Virus genome (UHGV): UHGV-0235014
DNA from: a virus
Direction: 5' to 3' (one strand)
Length of the DNA: 32,379 bases
Shown here: in pieces, positions 1,082-32,188 of the stretch
Position numbering within the stretch: the stretch's first letter is position 1
Layout: the number at the start of each line of letters is the position of its first letter
Made by a program: the position numbers and the translations under genes
Notes under the pieces: generated by a model
Told to the model about the DNA's origin: nothing
The model's database searches: none
What the model saw: only the letters and a program-made list of their open reading frames with translations

Positions 1082-2434
<1,353 letters not shown>

Positions 2435-22240: not shown

Positions 22241-23590
22241 ATGGCTACGTGGCAACAGGGTATTAATTCTGGTGGTTTTCTGGCTGGCATCGGTACGCAA
22301 AATGAGAATGCGCCAAAGGCAAGCGACATTAACGCAACGCTTGGTCTGATCCGCGAAAACAATGAATTGGCTCGATCAGGTGCAAATAACGTTGGTCTGA
22401 CCGCGTTACGTGGTCTGGCTGGAGTTGCTGATATTTACAATCAGGAACAGCAACAGAAAGCGATTAGTGCGTTCAATAAGGTTCACGCTGATGCATGGGC
22501 TTCTGGTGATCCATCGGGACTATTTAAGTTTGCCAAGGAAAATCCAGCGTTTGTTGCGCAGGCACAACAGGCGTTTTCCGGTCTTAATGAGCAGCAACGC
22601 AACGATATGGGCGATTTAGCCATGAGGGCTAACGTCGCTCTTTCTCAGGGACCGGAAGCCTACAGTAAATTCATTACTGACAACAAGGACAGGTTAAATC
22701 GCGTGGGGGCGAATGCTGACTGGATGATTCAGACAGGTATCCAGAATCCAGAGCAGCTATCACACATGTTGACTACTATGTCTCTCGGTGCGCTTGGACC
22801 AGAAAAGGCGTTTGCTGTTCAGGACAAGATGGTTGGTCGCCAGCAGGAGCAGCAAAGAATTAACGAAACCATTCGCAATAATGACATGACGAATGCGAGG
22901 GCTATTAGGGGGCAGGATCTTTCCTATAAGGCTCAAATGGCAAGACTGAATCACGACAAGTATGTGTTTAAGCAGTCACAGGCGGCCCTTGAAAGAGCAG
23001 GACAACTTCAGGATATGGATGTTTTGTCTCTTAACTCACAGATAGCAGCGACGGGAATTGATCCGCTAACCGGTAAAGCTGCAACGTCAGCCAGAATGTC
23101 TCAGGCTAAGAGATGGCTTGATGGCAACAATAATTACAACAATGCGTTGATTACTGGTGAGCGAGGGATAGAGAAAATAGATTCTTTGCTTGGTAAGAAG
23201 GAGCTTGAAGGTATCGGTCGCTTCGAAGGAAGAAATATAGATGGCTTCACAAGTGCTGAAGGGCTTGCAAACCGTAATGCGATAGAAGAATTAAAGTCGG
23301 GTGCGTTTGTCCAGAACGTGCAGACTATGCGAGGTATGGGTAGCCTCTCCAATGCTGAAGGACAAAAACTGGAAAACCTTATCGCGAAACTCGATATAAC
23401 ACAGCCTGAAGAGGTCGTCAGAAAACAGTTATCTGAAATCCGATCGCAATATTCTGTATTTCAAAAGGTTGCAGCAAGGGAGGCTGAATCAATGGGATAT
23501 AGTTCATCAGGTTATGACACATATGTTAGTGAGCGAAAATCAGGAAGCGACAGCAATAAGTCCGGTTTCTCGTCTTTATGGGGTGATTAA
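22241..23590 (+). CDS. ejection (E) protein, P22 gp20-like
   Basis: 449 aa; synteny. Confidence 0.75.
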
Positions 23591-25464
23591 TGGCTAAAGC
23601 ATGGAAAGATGTTATCGCTTCTCCACAGTATCAGGCGTTAACTGAAGAACAGAAAGCACAGGCTCAAGCGCAATATTTTGATGAGGTTGTTGCCCCTAAG
23701 GCTGGTGACAAATGGGCTGAAGCAAGAGATCAGTTTTATGCAGCATACCCTCCACCTCAGCAGCAGAAAGAAGAACCATCATTGATGCAACAAGCTGGTG
23801 ATTGGCTCACAGGTGGTCAAAGTGCAGGGCAAATTGCAGAACAGGCTGGTCGTGGTCTGGTAAACATACCATTTGACGTATTGCAGGGTGGCGCAAGTCT
23901 GATTAATGCAATCAGTCAGGGGCTTGGTGGACCCAAGGTTTTGGATGATGTTTATCGTCCAGTAGACAGACCGACAGACCCATACGCACAAGCCGGTGAA
24001 ACAATTGGTGGGTATTTAGTTCCAGGAGTTGGAACGGCAGGAAGCATGGCTATTGGATCACTGGCAGAGGCCGCAAATCAGAAAGGCGATTTCGCACAAA
24101 ATGCAGCTAAAAATGCCGGAGTTAACCTTGCCGCTCAGGGTGTTCTTTCCGCAGCAGCAAAGGGAATAGGGCGTGGAATAACGGCTATAAAAGGTGATAT
24201 TGCGCCAGAAGTGGCGAAGAAAATTGCCACATCAGAATCGATGGGCGTGACACCAATGACATCTGATGTTATCCCGCCGAAAAATGCTTTCACTCGCGGC
24301 CTTACTCAGGATGCCGAGGGGGCTTTGCTCGGGACAGGCTCAAAGCGAGCGGAGCAATATGCAACGCGTAGTAAGCTGGTAAGCAATTATTTTGACCGTT
24401 TTGGTGAGTACAACCCTGATGATGTGGTGAAATCTCTGACCACCACGTTAAGGGGGCGGAAGGATGCTGCTGGCGCTGTTATCAATGACGTCACCAATAA
24501 AATGGGTAATGCCGCAGTTGATACCACAAATACCATGAATGCTCTGAATACAGCGATCGCAAGACAGGAACGGCTTGGGACTTCAGCCAATCAAAGCCTG
24601 CTTACATCCTTGCGTAACCTACGTGAAGAATTAGCAAACCCTGCAACTGATTTGGATGTTACGTTTGATCTCTTGCGTCAGCACAGAACAGCATTTAGAT
24701 CTAATGTTCAGGGAGATGCTATGGTCTTCCCCAACCAGGCAAAAGCAGCTACCAATATGGTAGAGAATGCAATGTCAAAAGACCTTCGTAACGCAGTTGC
24801 TAAAAACCTCGGTGCATCAGACGCAGCAAAATACCTTAAAGCAAATTCCGATTATGCAAACGTTTATAATAAGGTGCTTAATAAAAACATTGCCAACAAG
24901 CTCAACAAGGCAAGCAGTGAAGCCAGTCCTGAACTTATAAATACCGTTGTATTAAGCAGAAAACCATCTGACGTGAAACGAATCTGGAGCGCACTGGATG
25001 ATAAAGGGAAAGATGCTATGCGTGCAGCTTACGTCAGCAAAATAGCGGAAAAGGCCGGTGACTCTCCAGCCAAGTTCATCACTGAAGTTAATAAGCTGAA
25101 ATCTCAGTCAGGAGGTGAAATTTACAACACTATTTTTTCTGGAAAGCACATGAAAGAACTTGATGCTCTTAATGAAGTTCTACAGCAAACAGCAAGGTCA
25201 GACACCGCAAATGTAGTAACTCAGACGGGGCAATCGCAAGCCAACAGGATAAGGACGATTGGCGCAACTGCGACTCTTGGCGTATCAATGGGGCTTGAGG
25301 CTGGTTTCGGTGCAATGATGCGCTTGTATGAGTCCAAAGCAGCAAGGAATGCGCTCTTACGTCTGGCAAACACTAAAGCTGGAACGCCAGCCTATGAAAG
25401 AGCGCTGAATAACGCCGCAAATGCCATCAGACCAATACTTGCCAATGATGCAACTGATCGCTAA
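23590..25464 (+). CDS. ejection (E) protein, P22 gp16-like
   Basis: 624 aa; synteny; last gene of structural operon before strand switch. Confidence 0.75.
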
Positions 25465-25485: not shown

Positions 25486-26124
25486 TTAATTGCGAATGGA
25501 ATCGCGGAACTCTTTGCTTGATAGAAAAGGATCTGTTCTCCTTAACTCATCATAGTTTTTATTAAACTTTCTTGCTTCACCTGGGTATCTGTTGAACAAA
25601 ACATTGCAGAAAAAAGAGAGCAATAACTCACATATGAATGCTAATACCCTGAAAAATAAAGGTATAAAAAGAAGGGAAGGTTCATTGAAGTCTCTATTCC
25701 AAACAAAATAGACAATCATCCCGACATACCAAATTGATATCCCTATACTGATGATTGTTCCAACAGAGGTAACTACGATCCCGATTAAGTCGGACAGTCT
25801 GTTTGCCAGTAACTCATTTGAGTATCTTGCAATCATATACCGCCAACATTTTGCAATATCATCCTGATCTGTAGAGTCTTCTGGAATAGCTAGGCTTCTA
25901 CATATTGAAGTAGCTCTTTTTTTCTCAACTCTTTTTGAGATCCATCCATTAAAGAGATACATCAACACCTGCGTTGCTATTCCTGCACCAAGTGATATCA
26001 AAGACATCCCCAAAAATCTCCATCCTGGAGATAGTGACTGGTACTGCCAAACAAAAAAAATTAAAAAACCCAATGAGCCTATGACATAGGCTGATGTATC
26101 GCTATATATATCTATTTTTTTCAT
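25486..26124 (-). CDS. polytopic inner-membrane protein; candidate superinfection exclusion (SieA-position) protein
   Basis: Minus strand, ATG 26124 with AAGGAG SD; ~5 predicted TM segments; very AT-rich; downstream of and co-oriented with a repressor gene, between gp16 and the ant module where P22 carries sieA. Confidence 0.7.
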   Translation of the reverse strand: MKKIDIYSDTSAYVIGSLGFLIFFVWQYQSLSPGWRFLGMSLISLGAGIATQVLMYLFNGWISKRVEKKRATSICRSLAIPEDSTDQDDIAKCWRYMIARYSNELLANRLSDLIGIVVTSVGTIISIGISIWYVGMIVYFVWNRDFNEPSLLFIPLFFRVLAFICELLLSFFCNVLFNRYPGEARKFNKNYDELRRTDPFLSSKEFRDSIRN

Positions 26125-26188
26125 TGAGTAGCCACTCCTTAGTTTTGAGCAGAACACCGGATGATAATGTGTCGCTTCCTAAAGGATA

Positions 26189-26830
26189 TCAAAGCAACGG
26201 GATTTCAAGGTAAACTGCGGTTGCCAAAATACTAACATCTTCATTTCTAACAAGAATATTAGGATACATTGGGTTTAGGGATACTAAGTTTGTCTCTATT
26301 TCACCAATGTAAACCTGCTTGAAGCTCAATATTTGCTCTTTATCCAATGATGCTATTACATAATCTTTGCTTTTAGCTTTTACTAGAGGGCTGAACGTGA
26401 CAACTGATCCTCTGGGAAAGCTAATACCTGAACTTGTAGTCATAGCTTCACCTTCAATAGTCAATGCAAATGCAGAGTCACCAACATTGTATATTGCCGG
26501 ATGAAATCTAGACGATGAATGTTCACCTGTGTTTAGGTAATGCATAACTTCATCTAGTTTGAGGATTGGTATTTGCTTTACCAGAACGTCAGGCATGACG
26601 TTTTTTGTTCCAGGCCCCTGACCTTCACCCAGAGCTAACCACTCAGCCGTAGTGCCTAATGCGTTGGCTAATGCCTGCAATACACGAAGCCGTGGTTTAG
26701 CCTCACCACCCTCGTATGCAGCTATTTGACGTTGAACAACACCAGCTAATTTTGACAACTGCGCCTGCGTCATACCCCTGGACTGTCTTGCCAGAGATAC
26801 TCTTGATGGGAATTGATCGTCAAAATTCAT
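26189..26830 (-). CDS. CI/LexA-like repressor (HTH_XRE + S24-like domain with nucleophile Ser replaced by Ala)
   Basis: 213 aa; HTH MTQAQLSKLAGVVQRQIAAYEGG; C-domain aligns to 434/lambda cI but has GEAM in place of GDSM; Lys of FKQV retained. Confidence 0.8.
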   Translation of the reverse strand: MNFDDQFPSRVSLARQSRGMTQAQLSKLAGVVQRQIAAYEGGEAKPRLRVLQALANALGTTAEWLALGEGQGPGTKNVMPDVLVKQIPILKLDEVMHYLNTGEHSSSRFHPAIYNVGDSAFALTIEGEAMTTSSGISFPRGSVVTFSPLVKAKSKDYVIASLDKEQILSFKQVYIGEIETNLVSLNPMYPNILVRNEDVSILATAVYLEIPLL

Positions 26831-26861
26831 TAGTTCACCATAAAAAATTCATTGACTCATA

Positions 26862-26890
26862 CTGAGTGTGAGTGAATAATCAAACTACAA
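26862..26890 (+). promoter_or_regulatory. candidate promoter for arc-like/ant operon in divergent intergenic region
   Basis: TTGACT (26862..26867) - 17 nt - AATAAT; between divergent repressor and RHH genes; operator not resolved. Confidence 0.4.
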
Positions 26891-26929
26891 AAAGTGAGAT
26901 TATGAGTTTTTCAAAAACAGGAGTGCATA

Positions 26930-27103
26930 ATGACTGAAAAGATATCTTCCATCAAGCCGCGTCAGGTTCGTTTTACAGAAAAGGTTGATTCACATATCCG
27001 CGAATCAGCAAAAAGATGCCATAGGTCAATTCAGGCAGAGATAGCTTATCGAATGGAGTTATTGATGAAACTTGAGGCAAAGGGCGATGTTGTCATCCAA
27101 TAA
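26930..27103 (+). CDS. Arc-like ribbon-helix-helix protein (57 aa)
   Basis: ATG 26930 with CAGGAG SD; basic beta-strand PRQVRFTEKV then two helices typical of RHH; directly precedes antirepressor; short, not in ORF track. Confidence 0.6.
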   Translation: MTEKISSIKPRQVRFTEKVDSHIRESAKRCHRSIQAEIAYRMELLMKLEAKGDVVIQ

Positions 27104-27176
27104 AAATAGTGAAGCCCGGCAGTGCGCGAACACAAACCGGGCCTCTATGTCAGTAACCGTATGCAAGGAAACTAAC

Positions 27177-27803
27177 ATGAATATTGTAGCAAAATCAGAT
27201 TACAACTTCCACGGAGTTGAGTTGGTGCCCACCCGTGATATGCATGGTGTTTGGTTTACATCATCTAATATTGCATCTGCACTTAAATATGCAAATAGCC
27301 GTGCAGTAACAATGATTTATAACAAGTATAGCGATGAGTTTAGCGCCGGAATGACTCAGGTACTCGAAGTGAGTACCTCAGGAAATTATCGCAAAAAAGT
27401 GCGAGTTTTCTCACTACGCGGTGCCCACCTAATCGCGATGTTTGCTCGCACTCCGGTAGCCAAAGAGTTCCGCCGCTGGGTGCTGGATATTTTGGATCGG
27501 CAGGCAGAATGCTCACCGATTGCAAAACAGTTTACTGACGAAGAACTGGTTAATCTCTGCTACTTACAATTGTGGATGGAGAAGAGTCAACAAATGTGCA
27601 AACACATCTACCCAGGAATGAAGCAAATTGGTTCTGAGCTTTCAGGAAGAATTTACGATATTGCATATGAGACTCGCTATATGTCAGAAGAAACCAAGAA
27701 ATCACTTCTTCGTGAAATGAAGAATCTTGATACCAACAATTTTGTCGTAAAGAACGCTCAGCCAATGCTGACAAAACTGCGCGGCGAGGAATGGATTCAT
27801 TGA
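27177..27803 (+). CDS. antirepressor-like protein with N-terminal Bro-N domain
   Basis: 208 aa from ATG 27177 (AAGGA SD); YNFHGVELVPTRDMHGVWFTSSNIASALKY fits Bro-N pattern. Confidence 0.75.
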   Translation: MNIVAKSDYNFHGVELVPTRDMHGVWFTSSNIASALKYANSRAVTMIYNKYSDEFSAGMTQVLEVSTSGNYRKKVRVFSLRGAHLIAMFARTPVAKEFRRWVLDILDRQAECSPIAKQFTDEELVNLCYLQLWMEKSQQMCKHIYPGMKQIGSELSGRIYDIAYETRYMSEETKKSLLREMKNLDTNNFVVKNAQPMLTKLRGEEWIH

Positions 27804-27891
27804 TTGGTGCGCCGGACGGCGCAAAAAGAAAACCGCCAGTGTGCTGCTGGCGGCCTATGTCACACCCTTACTACCACATAAGGAATGCCTA

Positions 27892-28617
27892 ATGACTTTG
27901 AAGAATGTAGCAAACATCGGATCCGTTGTCACGGATAAAACCATTGACAGCCAAAGTCTTCTGATGATGGTTAATGAAGCTCGCAAGTTATGTGGAGAGC
28001 CATCAGTACGTAACAACAAATTCATCGAGAAAATTGAGGATGAATTGGAGGGCGAGACCTACACAAAAAGTGTAGGTCGGAAAAACGGGGCTGACATTGA
28101 TGTTATCTCCATGACTATCAAGCAGGCGCTTCGTGTTGCTGCTCGCGAATCTAAAGCAGTTCGCCGAACACTTGTAGACAAACTTGAAAGTATGCAAGAA
28201 GCGCACATTAAAAGCGGTAAATCGTCGAGTGGACTTGTTGAGTATCGCCAGGCACGAACATTGAAAATGACGGTTGAAGCTGTTACCAATCTGTTAGATT
28301 TGATGCCAAATCTTGCGCCGGAAGCAAAGCAGACTGCGGCAGCAAGCATAATCAACCCGATAGTTGGTTTTAATGCAATACCTCTTCCAGCAATAGAAGA
28401 GCATTACTACTCAGCAGGGGAGGTTGCAGAGCAGCTTGGAGTAACGGCAAACAAGATTGGTCGCATTGCTAACGCAAACAACCTCAAAACTGAGCAGTAC
28501 GGGAAGTTCTTCTTGGATAAATCTGCGCATTCAAGCAAACAGGTGGAAGCATTCCGCTACAATGCGGAGGGTGTTAAAGCACTACAACACCTGATTCATG
28601 GGAGCAATGTTGCATAA
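27892..28617 (+). CDS. hypothetical protein in ant operon (possible antirepressor/regulatory protein)
   Basis: 241 aa from ATG 27892 (AAGGA SD); not confidently recognised. Confidence 0.6.
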   Translation: MTLKNVANIGSVVTDKTIDSQSLLMMVNEARKLCGEPSVRNNKFIEKIEDELEGETYTKSVGRKNGADIDVISMTIKQALRVAARESKAVRRTLVDKLESMQEAHIKSGKSSSGLVEYRQARTLKMTVEAVTNLLDLMPNLAPEAKQTAAASIINPIVGFNAIPLPAIEEHYYSAGEVAEQLGVTANKIGRIANANNLKTEQYGKFFLDKSAHSSKQVEAFRYNAEGVKALQHLIHGSNVA

Positions 28618-28838
28618 TGGCAAAGAAAAGATATGGCATTATGCCGCCAAGAATCAAAGGAAGAGCCAGGGTAAAAGGAGATGCTGGAAGGTATCACATT
28701 CTTGGAGTTCTGTGGCATGAGAGAGCTTTAATTTTAAGTAGACCTCATGGGTACATTGAAAAGGTATCTATAGATAGAGTAGAGATTCTTCCCCTTACAC
28801 CTGAAGAAGAAGAAACGTACGGACTTTTTGATAACTAA
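28617..28838 (+). CDS. small hypothetical protein (73 aa)
   Basis: TAATG overlap with preceding gene; followed by strong terminator. Confidence 0.5.
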   Translation: MAKKRYGIMPPRIKGRARVKGDAGRYHILGVLWHERALILSRPHGYIEKVSIDRVEILPLTPEEEETYGLFDN

Positions 28839-28845
28839 CCAACTA

Positions 28846-28875
28846 AACCCGCTTAATTGCGGGTTTTTTCTTTTC
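28846..28875 (+). terminator. intrinsic terminator ending the ant operon
   Basis: AACCCGC-TTAATT-GCGGGTT followed by TTTTTTCTTTT; stop codon of the convergent mnt-like gene lies in the loop. Confidence 0.75.
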
Positions 28876-29110
28876 TAAGGATATCAGCCACAACTTCTTT
28901 TACTCGTTCCGAGATTAATGAGGCCAGCCTCTCTTCTTCATCACGATACCCGCTTACAGGTGATGGTTTGGAGAGTGATTCTTCCATCGTAGCCACAATT
29001 TCGGAATTGATAGACCTGTTATTCATTTTTGCACGTTGCTTAATCTTAGCGTGCAACTCGTGCGTAAGCCTCAAGTGGAACTGCGCCTCATCGTATTTGC
29101 TGTACATCAT
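28853..29110 (-). CDS. mnt: Mnt-like ribbon-helix-helix repressor
   Basis: 85 aa from ATG 29110 (GGTGAGG SD); ...NRSINSEIVATMEESLSKPSPVSGYRDEEERLA... closely parallels P22 Mnt (..NGRSMNSELLQIVQDALSKPSPVTGYRNDAERLA..). Confidence 0.7.
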   Translation of the reverse strand: MMYSKYDEAQFHLRLTHELHAKIKQRAKMNNRSINSEIVATMEESLSKPSPVSGYRDEEERLASLISERVKEVVADILRKEKTRN

Positions 29111-29242
29111 CAATGCCTCACCAAATGGGTGGAATGGCATCGTAAAACCTACTGTACAAATCAACAATCGTACCATTTCGGTATGCAACAAACACCAACC
29201 GTAGCCACGCTGCGGCGATTCCTTGTATCTGGAGCAAATTAA

Positions 29243-32188
29243 ATGACAGACATTACAGCCAATGTTGTGGTAAGCATGCCTTCGCAACTCTTCACTATGG
29301 CTCGTTCTTTTAAAGCGGTAGCCAATGGCAAAATTTATATCGGTAAAATTGACACTGACCCAGTAAATCCTGAAAACCAGATTCAGGTTTATGTGGAGAA
29401 TGAAGACGGTTCTCACGTTCCTGTTTCGCAACCAATAATCATTAACGCTGCTGGATATCCGGTATATAACGGACAGATTGCCAAATTCGTTACCGTGCAA
29501 GGCCATTCTATGGCTGTTTATGATGCGTATGGTGCACAGCAGTTCTATTTTCCCAATGTGCTGAAGTATGACCCTGATCAACTACGGCAGCAATTAGAAG
29601 ACCCAGATGGAGCGAATAAATACCCAAAACTTCAGATAGCAAGATGGAGAGACAGTTATGATGTAAGAGGTTGGGGGGCTATTGGTGATGGTGTTCATGA
29701 TGATACATCAGCTCTATCAGAATTACTTTCTGTTGCAACAGGTGGTGAAAAGATAGATGGGCGAGGGCTTACTTTTAAAGTATCAACTCTTCCAGATGTC
29801 AGTCGATTTAAAAATGCTCGTTTTTTATTTGAGAGAATACCGGGTCAGCCTCTTTTTTATGCTTCTGAAGATTTTATCCAGGGAGAGTTATTTAAAATTA
29901 CAGATACACCGTGGTACAACGCCTGGACGCAGGATAAAACGTTTGTATATGACAATGTCATCTATGCGCCTTTTATGGCTGGAGACCGCCATGGTGTAAA
30001 TAACCTCCATGTTGCATGGGTTCGCTCAGGAGATGACGGGAAGACCTGGACAACGCCGGAATGGCTTACAGATTTACATGAAAACTATCCCACAGTTAAC
30101 TATCACTGCATGAGTATGGGGGTTGTCAGAAATCGCCTTTTTGCTGTAATTGAGACGCGGACCGTGAGCGGAAATAAACTGCAGGTTGCAGAGTTGTGGG
30201 ATCGCCCAATGAGTCGCAGCCTTCGCGTTTATGGTGGTATAACGAAAGCAGCAAATCAGCAAGTCGCTTATATTCGCATTACTGATCACGGATTATTTGC
30301 TGGTGATTTTGTCAACTTCTCAAATTCTGGTGTTACAGGTGTTACCGGGAATATGACGGTGACTACTGTTATTGATAAAAATACTTTTACAGTTACGACG
30401 CAAAATACCCAGGATGTGGATCAGAATAACGAGGGTAGATACTGGAGTTTTGGTACATCATTTCACTCGTCACCATGGAGAAAAACCAGTCTTGGAACTA
30501 TTCCTTCTTTTGTTGACGGAAGCACTCCTGTTACTGAGATTCACAGTTTTGCGACGATTAGCGATAACAGTTTTGCTGTTGGCTACCATAATGGTGATAT
30601 TGATCCACGCGAGCTTGGGATACTCTATTTCTCTGATGCTTTCGGTTCTCCTGGTAGCTTTGTTCGCAGACGCATACCTGTAGAATATGAGGCGAATGCA
30701 TCTGAGCCATGTGTAAAATATTATGATGGCATTCTGTATCTGACGACCAGGGGGACATTAAGTACTCAACCCGGTAGTTCATTGCACAGAAGCTCTGATT
30801 TAGGTACATCATGGAATTCTCTTCGCTTCCCAAATAATGTTCATCACTCAAACCTTCCTTTTGCCAAAGTTGGCGATGAGCTGATTATTTTTGGCAGTGA
30901 GCGCGCATTTGGTGAGTGGGAAGGAGGAGAACCTGATAACCGTTATGCAGGAAATTATCCAAGAACATTTATGACCAGAGTTAACGTCAATGAGTGGAGT
31001 CTGGATAATGTAGAGTGGGTTAATGTTACTGATCAGATTTATCAGGGCGGAATAGTTAACTCTGCGGTTGGTGTTGGTTCAGTTTGTATCAAAGACAACT
31101 GGCTGTACTACATTTTCGGTGGGGAAGACTTTCTAAACCCATGGAGCATAGGGGATAACAACAGAAAATATCCTTATGTTCACGATGGTCACCCGGCTGA
31201 TTTGTATTGTTTCAGGGTGAAAATTAAACAGGAAGAATTTGTTTCAAGGGATTTTGTCTACGGAGCCACTCCTAACAGAACGCTTCCTACTTTTATGTCG
31301 ACGTCAGGCGTGAGGACGGTTCCTGTACCCGTTGATTTCACAGATGATGTTGCCGTCCAGTCACTGACTGTCCATGCAGGTACATCAGGACAAGTTCGCG
31401 CGGAAGTCAAACTTGAGGGTAATTACGCCATTATTGCGAAGAAAGTACCGTCTGATGATGTTACCGCTCAGAGATTAATCGTTAGCGGCGGTGAAACAAC
31501 GTCTTCAGCAGATGGTGCAATGATAACGTTGCATGGTTCCGGAAGCAGTACTCCACGTCGCGCGGTATATAACGCACTCGAACATCTTTTTGAGAACGGA
31601 GATGTTAAACCTTATCTTGATAATGTAAATGCTCTTGGTGGTCCGGGAAACAGGTTCTCGACAGTTTATCTTGGCTCCAATCCTGTGGTTACCAGTGACG
31701 GAACATTAAAGACAGAGCCGGTCTCTCCTGACGAAGCATTGCTGGATGCCTGGGGTGACGTCAGGTATATCGCTTATAAATGGCTGAACGCTGTCGCTAT
31801 AAAGGGGGAAGAAGGGGCGAGGATACATCATGGTGTAATCGCGCAGCAACTTCGTGATGTTCTTATTTCTCACGGACTCATGGAAGAAGAAAGCACAACA
31901 TGCCGCTATGCGTTTCTTTGCTATGACGATTATCCCGCAGTATATGATGACGTCATTACTGGCCAAAGGGAAATGCCGCTGACTGATAATGACGGGAGCA
32001 TCATTGTTGATGAGGATGATAATCCAGTGATGGTAATGGAAGACATCATTGAGCGCGTTGAAATAACGCCAGCAGGATCTAGATGGGGGGTCAGACCTGA
32101 TCTCTTATTCTATATCGAGGCGGCATGGCAGCGCAGAGAAATAGAAAGAATAAAAGCTAGGTTAGACTTAATAGAAGGGAAGCACTAA
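29243..32188 (+). CDS. tailspike protein: P22 gp9-like head-binding domain + endosialidase (endo-N-acylneuraminidase) + C-terminal intramolecular chaperone (S74-like) domain
   Basis: 981 aa; N-terminal ~115 aa conserved tailspike head-binding domain; Asp-boxes SGDDGKTW (30026..30049) and SSDLGTSW (30791..30814); C-terminal region with Ser-x4-Lys (VVTSDGTLK, Ser at 31694..31696) typical of auto-cleaving chaperone domains. Confidence 0.85.

Follow-up and report, generated by a model that had tools for sequence, protein, structure and literature searches.

A tailspike-adjacent mnt gene in a CUS-3-like prophage of E. coli probably forms a self-contained cassette with its own predicted operator

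The window (the whole stretch of 32,379 nucleotides that was analysed) comes from a CUS-3-like E. coli prophage and resembles CUS-3 (CP000711) both in phage type and in its tailspike (Table 1). Between the gene 16 homologue and the tailspike gene lies a variable gene set that matches the definition of the 'ant moron' (Villafane et al. 2008, PMC2629481). It comprises an antirepressor module, with a four-gene rightward ant operon under a divergent cI-like repressor, and a leftward mnt-like gene. The latter converges with the plus-strand gene orf73 (end at 28838) and diverges from the tailspike, the ATG of which is at 29243, leaving a mnt–tailspike spacer of 132 bp (29111..29242). As the original prediction had it, this position is unlike that in P22: the gene faces the tailspike, with the ant operon behind it in convergent orientation. 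Compared with a P22-type immI region, an antirepressor gene is present, mnt is not divergent from arc-ant and no Mnt operator overlaps the ant promoter (26831-26929) or occurs in the rest of the operon. An Rfam search for the sar antisense RNA gave no match at E <= 1 other than a chance-level one to symR. Further TGAGT repeats lie downstream of the ACTCA-TAC-TGAGT palindrome in the ant promoter; palindrome and repeats presumably serve the cI-like protein, the RHH57 protein or both. Minus-strand promoter-like and terminator-like signals bracket the start of Ant2.

Table 1. Features of the mnt locus and its surroundings in the window
Feature	Position	Strand	Description
gp16 homologue	23590-25464		From the gene list
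Antirepressor module	26189..28838		Context, outside the mnt cassette; from ORFs, domains and promoter scan
cI-like repressor	26189-26830	-	HTH and S24 domains; part of the antirepressor module
ant promoter	26852-26880	+	TTGACT-17-AATAAT; contains the palindrome ACTCA-TAC-TGAGT (26855-26867)
RHH-like gene (RHH57)	26930-27103	+	57 aa; first gene of the four-gene rightward operon
Ant1	27177-27803	+	Bro-N and P22_AR_C domains; PHROG anti-repressor family, 4e-54
Ant2	27892-28617	+	PHROG anti-repressor family, 2e-100
orf73	28617-28838	+	Last gene of the ant operon
Two-way hairpin terminator	28845..28878		Stem 28845-28852 / 28859-28866, loop 28853-28858, T-run 28867-28878 (plus strand)
mnt-like gene	28853..29110	-	85 aa from ATG 29110, 84 aa from ATG 29107
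Shine-Dalgarno sequence of mnt	29116..29122	-	GGTGAGG, read directly from the sequence; kept in relatives
Palindrome at the mnt 5' end, from the original prediction	29119..29131	-	Plus strand CACCAAATGGGTG; mnt strand CACCCATTTGGTG, CACC-CATTT-GGTG; about +1 to +13 of the predicted mRNA
Counterpart of P22 Pmnt	29139..29167	-	-35 TTGTTG 29167->29162, 17-nt spacer, -10 TACGAT 29144->29139
Predicted Mnt operator	29169..29185		CATACC-GAAAT-GGTACG; core TACC-N5-GGTA 29171-29183; 3 nt upstream of the -35, like O_mnt in P22
Module-junction motif	29199..29215	+	CCGTAGCCACGCTGCGG; can form a hairpin; conserved, precedes the tailspike leader
Tailspike ribosome-binding site	29231-29234	+	GGAG, from the sequence
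Tailspike gene	29243..32188	+	981 aa; K1 endosialidase, 99% identity to the tailspike of CUS-3

The protein encoded by the mnt ORF (MMYSKYDEAQFHLRLTHELHAKIKQRAKMNNRSINSEIVATMEESLSKPSPVSGYRDEEERLASLISERVKEVVADILRKEKTRN) begins MMYSKYDEAQFHLRL, contains SKPSPVSGYR and ends KEKTRN; it consists of a ribbon-helix-helix N-domain with the recognition strand Q-F-H-L-R and a P22-Mnt-like C-terminal region. It matches the Pfam Arc profile PF03869 (54.6 bits against a cut-off of 20.4, E 9.9e-15) and, over residues 7-79, the solved structure of P22 Mnt (PDB 1MNT, E 8.1e-17), and is 48% identical to P22 Mnt. The Mnt-specific C-terminal region that follows the SKPSPVxGYR linker is present, and the alignment with P22 Mnt extends to residue 79; Arc, the recognition strand of which is close (QFNLR), differs in being without the Mnt C-terminal tetramerisation region. 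Together with the signature SKPSPV(S/T)GYR, these matches bear out the initial identification of the gene product as a Mnt homologue. The Shine-Dalgarno sequence is 5 nt from the first ATG (29110) and 8 nt from the second (29107); in phage VSe13 the second ATG is the only one, so the window protein may be of 85 or 84 amino acids. The ORF is intact in 89/89 loci examined, and the median dN/dS over the 44-codon DNA-binding region of the N-domain is 0.054 (354 pairs with dS above 0.1). By this measure purifying selection acts on the gene of the orphan Mnt cassette, and a ratio of about 0.05 combined with intact reading frames argues against a decaying remnant. On its homology, integrity and substitution pattern, the mnt-like gene is a real, intact and selected Mnt homologue.

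Read in the direction of mnt, the spacer and the experimentally annotated control region of P22 align in register. Where P22 has AG GTCC-ACCGT-GGAC CTA TTGAGA (O_mnt and the -35 of Pmnt), a 17-nt spacer and the -10 TATCAT, the window has CA TACC-GAAAT-GGTA CGA TTGTTG, a 17-nt spacer and TACGAT; the ST64T type reads GACC-ACGGT-GGTC tta TTGTGG with the -10 TATGAT, and the class formed by ST64T, 720R6 and the related locus L076 has GACC-ACNGT-GGTC, TTGTGG/TTGAGG and TATGAT/TAAGAT in the same register. The Arc operator, TAGA-N5-TCTA, has the same 13-bp core spacing. Transcription of mnt is predicted to start near 29132 and to give a leader of about 21 nt. The Pmnt counterpart agrees with the sigma-70 consensus at 7/12 positions and was missed by a generic promoter scan; it would be a weak promoter, tentatively identified by its homology and conservation. 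Its placement within the 132 bp agrees with the original prediction that the mnt promoter shares the spacer with the tailspike leader.

Comparison of the 61 distinct spacer sequences of the window class supports this reading of the region. The -10 is invariant and the -35 region nearly so; a -35/-10 spacing of only 15 nt in 10/61 tells against the promoter. The operator arms are kept in almost every sequence (TACC in 60/61, GGTA in 61/61) while 3/5 positions of the operator centre vary (GAAAT, GAAAC, TAAAC, TAAAT, AAAAT, GAGAC), and the flank of the operator on the tailspike side is the most variable stretch of all. Invariant arms around a free spacer are the pattern expected of a binding site, and TACC-N5-GGTA is the operator that we predict. 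Across 89 loci the operator type tracks the recognition strand without exception, QFHLR occurring with TACC-N5-GGTA (78 loci, plus 1 with TAAC), QFNLR with GACC-N5-GGTC (7 loci, plus 1 variant) and HFNFR with GTCC-N5-GGAC (P22), a correlation that may partly reflect physical linkage because the two elements are only ~90 bp apart. The C-terminal (3') halves of the gene recombine independently of the N-domain/operator type: L076 joins an ST64T-type N-domain and operator to a window-type C-terminus and terminator, and another locus, L058, shows the reverse. On the tailspike side of the operator, the module-junction motif is present in P22 as two copies between ant and gene 9, and in the CUS-3 record the region before the tailspike is annotated 'boundary sequence'.

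An imperfect palindrome had been described as overlapping the mnt start. It exists at 29119-29131, where it shares nucleotides with the Shine-Dalgarno sequence (29122->29116) and with the predicted mRNA 5' end, its 3' arm forming the beginning of the Shine-Dalgarno sequence; the start codon follows 8 nt on and is not part of the overlap. Arms of 4 bp are at chance level, with ~3 such repeats (spacers of 3-8 nt) expected per 132 bp, and a role as an operator is further disfavoured by spacing that varies alongside a fixed N5 operator. A second Mnt operator at this position was rejected for the same reason, the palindrome spacer being 4 nt in relatives as against 5 nt in others sharing the same N5 operator. 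The palindrome could possibly fold into a small hairpin at the RNA 5' end and cover part of the ribosome-binding site: relatives retain the 4-bp stem with loops of 4, 5, 6, 7 or 9 nt, and P22 and ST64T have CACU/AGUG in place of its arms. The survival of the stem despite differing loops, and a single compensating C:G to U:A change, are in keeping with such a hairpin, but the fold energy of the 39-nt leader is at chance (z -0.23) and the C:G to U:A change is common to related sequences.

At the other end of the gene, the hairpin reads AAACCCGC (28845-28852), loop TTAATT (28853-28858) and GCGGGTTT (28859-28866), followed by TTTTCTTTTC. The TAA of mnt is the reverse complement of 28853-28855, so that the stop codon lies inside the loop, as had been noticed at the outset. 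The fold energy is -13.1 kcal/mol for the plus strand (z -3.3) and -13.0 for the minus strand (z -4.0). The 8-bp stem and the T-run TTTTTTCTTTTC qualify the plus-strand form as an intrinsic terminator, strong enough that it would halt convergent transcripts lacking antitermination. The hairpin is equal on the minus strand and is followed there by a poor U-run (UUUAGUUGGUU), with just TTTAGTTGGTT after the stem, which makes termination of mnt itself uncertain. The hairpin had been taken for the terminator of the ant operon; it moves instead with the 3' end of mnt, whatever the downstream gene. In the form AAAAAACCCGC-(R)ATTAA-GCGGGTTT, whose loop contains the stop codon, it is found 3' of mnt before orf73, Ant2 or unrelated genes, the loci with differing downstream genes being VSe13, L056, L057, L072, L076 and L082. 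Another form, AACCCACC-TGAY-GGTGGGTT, differs by compensating changes, likewise has the stop in the loop, is carried by 720R6 and L058 and is degenerate in P22. That the hairpin stays at the 3' end of mnt whatever adjoins it points to a conserved two-way terminator of a mnt cassette.

Megablast with the 3.3-kb locus retrieved phage JEP4 (MT740315), which matches 89% of the query at 97% DNA identity, has an identical gene order and carries the gene under the annotation 'regulatory protein mnt'. The whole locus occurs in 26 complete E. coli genomes and the mnt allele with its spacer in 69 E. coli genomes; in 40 rows sampled at even spacing from 1159 matching E. coli records, an 'Arc family DNA-binding protein' is encoded directly beside the tailspike gene in about 12. 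A mnt gene adjoining and divergent from the tailspike is also found in ST64T, Sf101, vB_EcoP-720R6, VSe13 and Proteus phage Brookers, which are mostly without an ant gene, VSe13 having a small annotated antirepressor. All of the IMG/VR relatives that were fetched with a Mnt alignment (80/80) have mnt beside the tailspike gene, and in 79/80 the tailspike N-terminus is encoded on the opposite strand ~130 bp upstream of mnt, small insertions widening the gap in a few; in L072 a fragment of P22 ant separates the two genes. This constant adjacency to the tailspike could mean a functional coupling of a kind that lies outside the orphan-cassette explanation given below.

The region between gene 16 and the tailspike is known to be highly variable, with ten types of ant moron in sixteen genomes, some of them holding mnt alone (PMC2629481). 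On these comparisons the gene order of the window is an ordinary, frequent and already deposited variant of the mosaic P22-like region, and the claim that the order is special does not hold. The departure from P22 is real, mnt being divergent from arc-ant there with gene 9 further right; in ST64T, on the other hand, mnt faces the tailspike just as in the window. As to what a tailspike-adjacent or orphan mnt does, a literature search turned up nothing beyond statements that its function is unknown; of its orphan mnt, the phage L paper says that it 'could have acquired another function ... or be a remnant'.

The main alternative to the explanation that we propose below is that the cassette acts on the tailspike gene, with Mnt bound ~60 bp before its start and blocking read-through from the ant operon or leaky late transcription in the lysogen, or tuning late transcription into the gene; we regard this as unlikely. 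It would account for the divergent orientation of mnt and tailspike, which all loci examined share whether or not they have ant, and the operator does lie on the path of all rightward transcripts. It has also been speculated that the ant moron and its repressors affect the late transcription that reaches gene 9 (PMC2629481). Adjacency is compatible with a limiting of tailspike transcription, but no sequence evidence in support of it was found. A scan of 29111-29242 called no rightward, tailspike-directed promoter, and none is conserved there. P_ant of P22 lies on the other strand of this segment, the aligned hexamers being TTGACA/TATATT in P22, TCGGCA/TATATC in ST64T and ATGGCA/CAAATC in the window, and by these hexamers P_ant is decayed in the window. 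A rightward spacer promoter was rejected on the absence of a scan call, on the decayed hexamers and on the operator-to-junction segment, which is unconserved and the most variable part of the spacer. The adjacency, moreover, would be explained by loss of arc-ant at the sole site in the late operon known to tolerate inserts (PMC2629481), and the idea that an RHH tetramer blocks antiterminated late transcription lacks support.

We consider it quite improbable that the Mnt-like protein is a second dedicated repressor of the ant operon, as originally predicted, acting at the RHH/ant promoter ~2.3 kb away or inside the operon. P22 Mnt represses P_ant (P22 record; PMC2629481) and mnt adjoins the ant operon here, but the predicted operator lies solely beside the promoter of mnt itself. 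Within the 32-kb window the operator 17-mer matches once, even with 3 mismatches allowed, and neither TACC-N5-GGTA nor a close variant is present in 26831-26929 or in the intergenic spaces of the ant operon; a second perfect match of the 13-bp core lies in conserved coding sequence inside gene 16, at 24750. The same is true of the related loci, in every one of which the operator lies 61-73 bp upstream of mnt, other exact matches being scattered (several recur within gene 16 or the tailspike) and none of them at an ant promoter. When the collection was scanned with operator plus -35 as the query, 54 further contigs with operator and mnt were recovered, the tailspike being divergent in 52 and the other 2 truncated; the remaining 66 matches, with no mnt nearby, are attributable to chance. 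None of the 54 mnt-linked matches was in a P22-like (arc-ant) context, and no target in trans with the window operator was found by these scans, for which the bare 13-bp core is too short.

Among the 84 loci with a tailspike-adjacent mnt, 22 have, to the left of the gene, the Ant1-Ant2 operon under a cI-like/RHH57 module, as in the window, and 30 have that operon under an Arc-like gene and a second Mnt-like gene, the latter divergent and with a perfect palindrome of its own, TTGGTTCTAGAACCAA; an ant gene is missing from 28, and 4 have other arrangements. From these counts, wherever an ant operon is present it comes with a divergent repressor of its own, whether cI-like or a second Mnt-like protein with a different palindrome, while the tailspike-adjacent mnt stays with or without ant. 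Judged by this distribution and by the position of the operator, the mnt cassette beside the tailspike does not depend on the ant operon or on the ant promoter. To a third possibility, that the gene is a decaying immI remnant with no present function, as raised in the phage L paper for its orphan mnt, we give hardly any credence, for although the adjoining P_ant is decayed, the ORFs are intact in all 89 loci with an N-domain dN/dS of ~0.05, the operator arms, -10, Shine-Dalgarno sequence and terminator are kept while their flanks vary, and the cassette is widespread in E. coli prophages.

The explanation that we favour, and think rather probable on the comparative evidence, is that the locus is a self-contained 'orphan' Mnt cassette which regulates itself and is not the cis repressor of this ant operon. 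Its parts would be the two-way terminator that holds the stop codon, mnt, a weak promoter equivalent to Pmnt and the TACC-N5-GGTA operator abutting the -35. In the simplest history it originated as a P22-type mnt/P_ant control region from which arc-ant was lost, an event that would leave mnt directly before the tailspike leader and the opposing P_ant decayed. Other ant modules could then have been inserted between gene 16 and the cassette, and the presence of a separate ant operon with cI-like/RHH control on its left would make mnt convergent with that operon. Loss of arc-ant followed by later insertion of ant genes fits the high flux described for the region (PMC2629481).

In such an orphan cassette, the protein would bind 29169-29185, probably as a tetramer like P22 Mnt, and would regulate its own synthesis, the operator being centred near -45 and abutting the -35 as in P22. 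This autoregulation may be of either sign; the geometry matches that of P22, in which Mnt favours Pmnt. Expression from the prophage is probable. Any further target would probably lie in trans, for example at the antirepressor promoters of incoming or co-resident P22-like phages with the same operator. A more speculative extension, which we find doubtful yet worth stating, is that the cassette is kept beside the tailspike leader as a functional unit, with a prophage-made Mnt tetramer gating rightward transcription of the tailspike gene or as a portable 'immunity' element that silences the antirepressor modules of rival P22-like phages having the same operator.

The closest known systems share features with the window and also differ from it. 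P22 immI shares the protein family and domain layout, the 4-5-4 operator core placed 3 nt from the leftward -35, the TAnnAT -10, the hairpin around the stop codon and the site between gene 16 and the tailspike. It pairs HFNFR with GTCC-N5-GGAC, whereas the window pairs QFHLR with TACC-N5-GGTA; and the window is without the opposing arc-ant, has a decayed P_ant and has an ant operon convergent behind mnt with repressors of its own. The orphan mnt genes of ST64T, ST104 and L (PMC2629481; phage L paper) likewise diverge directly from the tailspike and share the Pmnt/operator layout and the junction motif, but they belong to the QFNLR/GACC-N5-GGTC class and have no ant operon on the other side. 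JEP4 has a different tailspike and, between it and the cassette, an additional AT-rich insert. CUS-3, for all its likeness in phage type and tailspike, has an ant moron of two tandem mnt genes followed by a rightward ant before the tailspike, and no tailspike-adjacent cassette.

Earlier work had described this gene family, the variability between gene 16 and the tailspike, and orphan mnt genes, and the same locus had been deposited and annotated in JEP4; the window gene represents a new specificity class. There are now at least three matched protein/operator classes (QFHLR/TACC, QFNLR/GACC and HFNFR/GTCC), and the boundaries of the cassette and its predicted operator are defined. For the annotation of prophages, a tailspike-proximal mnt should not be taken as the repressor of the neighbouring ant operon. 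The role of orphan Mnt is a small question in the biology of P22-like phages and the finding alone changes little, though the question is now directly testable. The strong purifying selection on these genes argues that orphan Mnt proteins do something, and if the cassette were indeed a portable immunity element, the recognition-strand/operator classes would amount to incompatibility groups.

The window (1-32379) covers the greater part of a P22-type prophage that resembles CUS-3. Its tailspike shares 99% identity with the K1 endosialidase of CUS-3, whereas its ant moron, the variable region between gene 16 and the tailspike, is entirely unlike that of CUS-3. A second, separate homologue of immC-type repressors and a SieA-like gene are also carried (see table).

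Further features of the prophage
Feature	Position	Strand	Remarks
Second immC-type repressor homologue	about 1483-2115		27% identity to the cI-like gene
Second perfect TACC-N5-GGTA (TACCAATATGGTA)	24750-24762		within the gene 16 homologue
SieA-like gene	25486-26157		
GC-rich hairpin GCCCGG...CCGGGC	27104-27179		in the RHH57-Ant1 spacer; read on the minus strand, TTCACTATTTTTATT comes next
Terminator-like hairpin with T-run	27856->27830	minus	
Promoter-like site GTGACA-17-TACATT	27932->27904	minus	TG upstream
Motif CCGTAGCCACGCTGCGG	29199-29215		foldable into a 7-bp hairpin

The motif CCGTAGCCACGCTGCGG lies before the tailspike, at the position where the CUS-3 record annotates a 'boundary sequence', and the stem of its hairpin co-varies from one phage group to another, as in CCGCAGC/GCTGTGG and GCATC/GATGT. 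In P22 (L005) two copies stand on either side of an insert between ant and gene 9, and the motif is likewise present twice in L079. It is a marker of module junctions. In some relatives (L017, L020 and L023 of IMG/VR, and L001, which is JEP4) the mnt cassette, comprising the Mnt-type repressor gene and its signals, is separated from the tailspike by insertions. One of these is a segment of ~530 bp directly after the first tailspike codons, with an ORF that looks like an HNH-type endonuclease; that of JEP4 is AT-rich and ~280 bp long.

The core of the predicted Mnt operator, TACC-N5-GGTA, has a second perfect match 4.4 kb from mnt. This match, TACCAATATGGTA, recurs in the gp16 homologues of several loci, one of them with 73% protein identity. 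Probably it is conserved coding sequence.

Within the ant operon, the GC-rich hairpin between RHH57, the 57-aa RHH-like gene, and Ant1 could serve as another antisense terminator; the sole Rfam match was symR, at chance level (E 0.75). We note that the Ant2 start codon (27892) is flanked by a minus-strand promoter-like site and a terminator-like hairpin (27830-27932). P22 has this layout for its sar antisense RNA, which spans the ribosome-binding site of ant. There was no Rfam match for sar.

Two interchangeable control modules were found with one Ant1-Ant2-orf73 operon (window 26189-27103; loci L010, L017 and others). The first, which is the window's type and occurs in 22 loci, pairs the cI-like HTH and S24-peptidase repressor with the 57-aa RHH protein; the other, in 30 loci, consists of an Arc-like gene and a second Mnt-like gene. 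With an S24 (self-cleaving) repressor at this place, antirepressor expression would be responsive to DNA damage.
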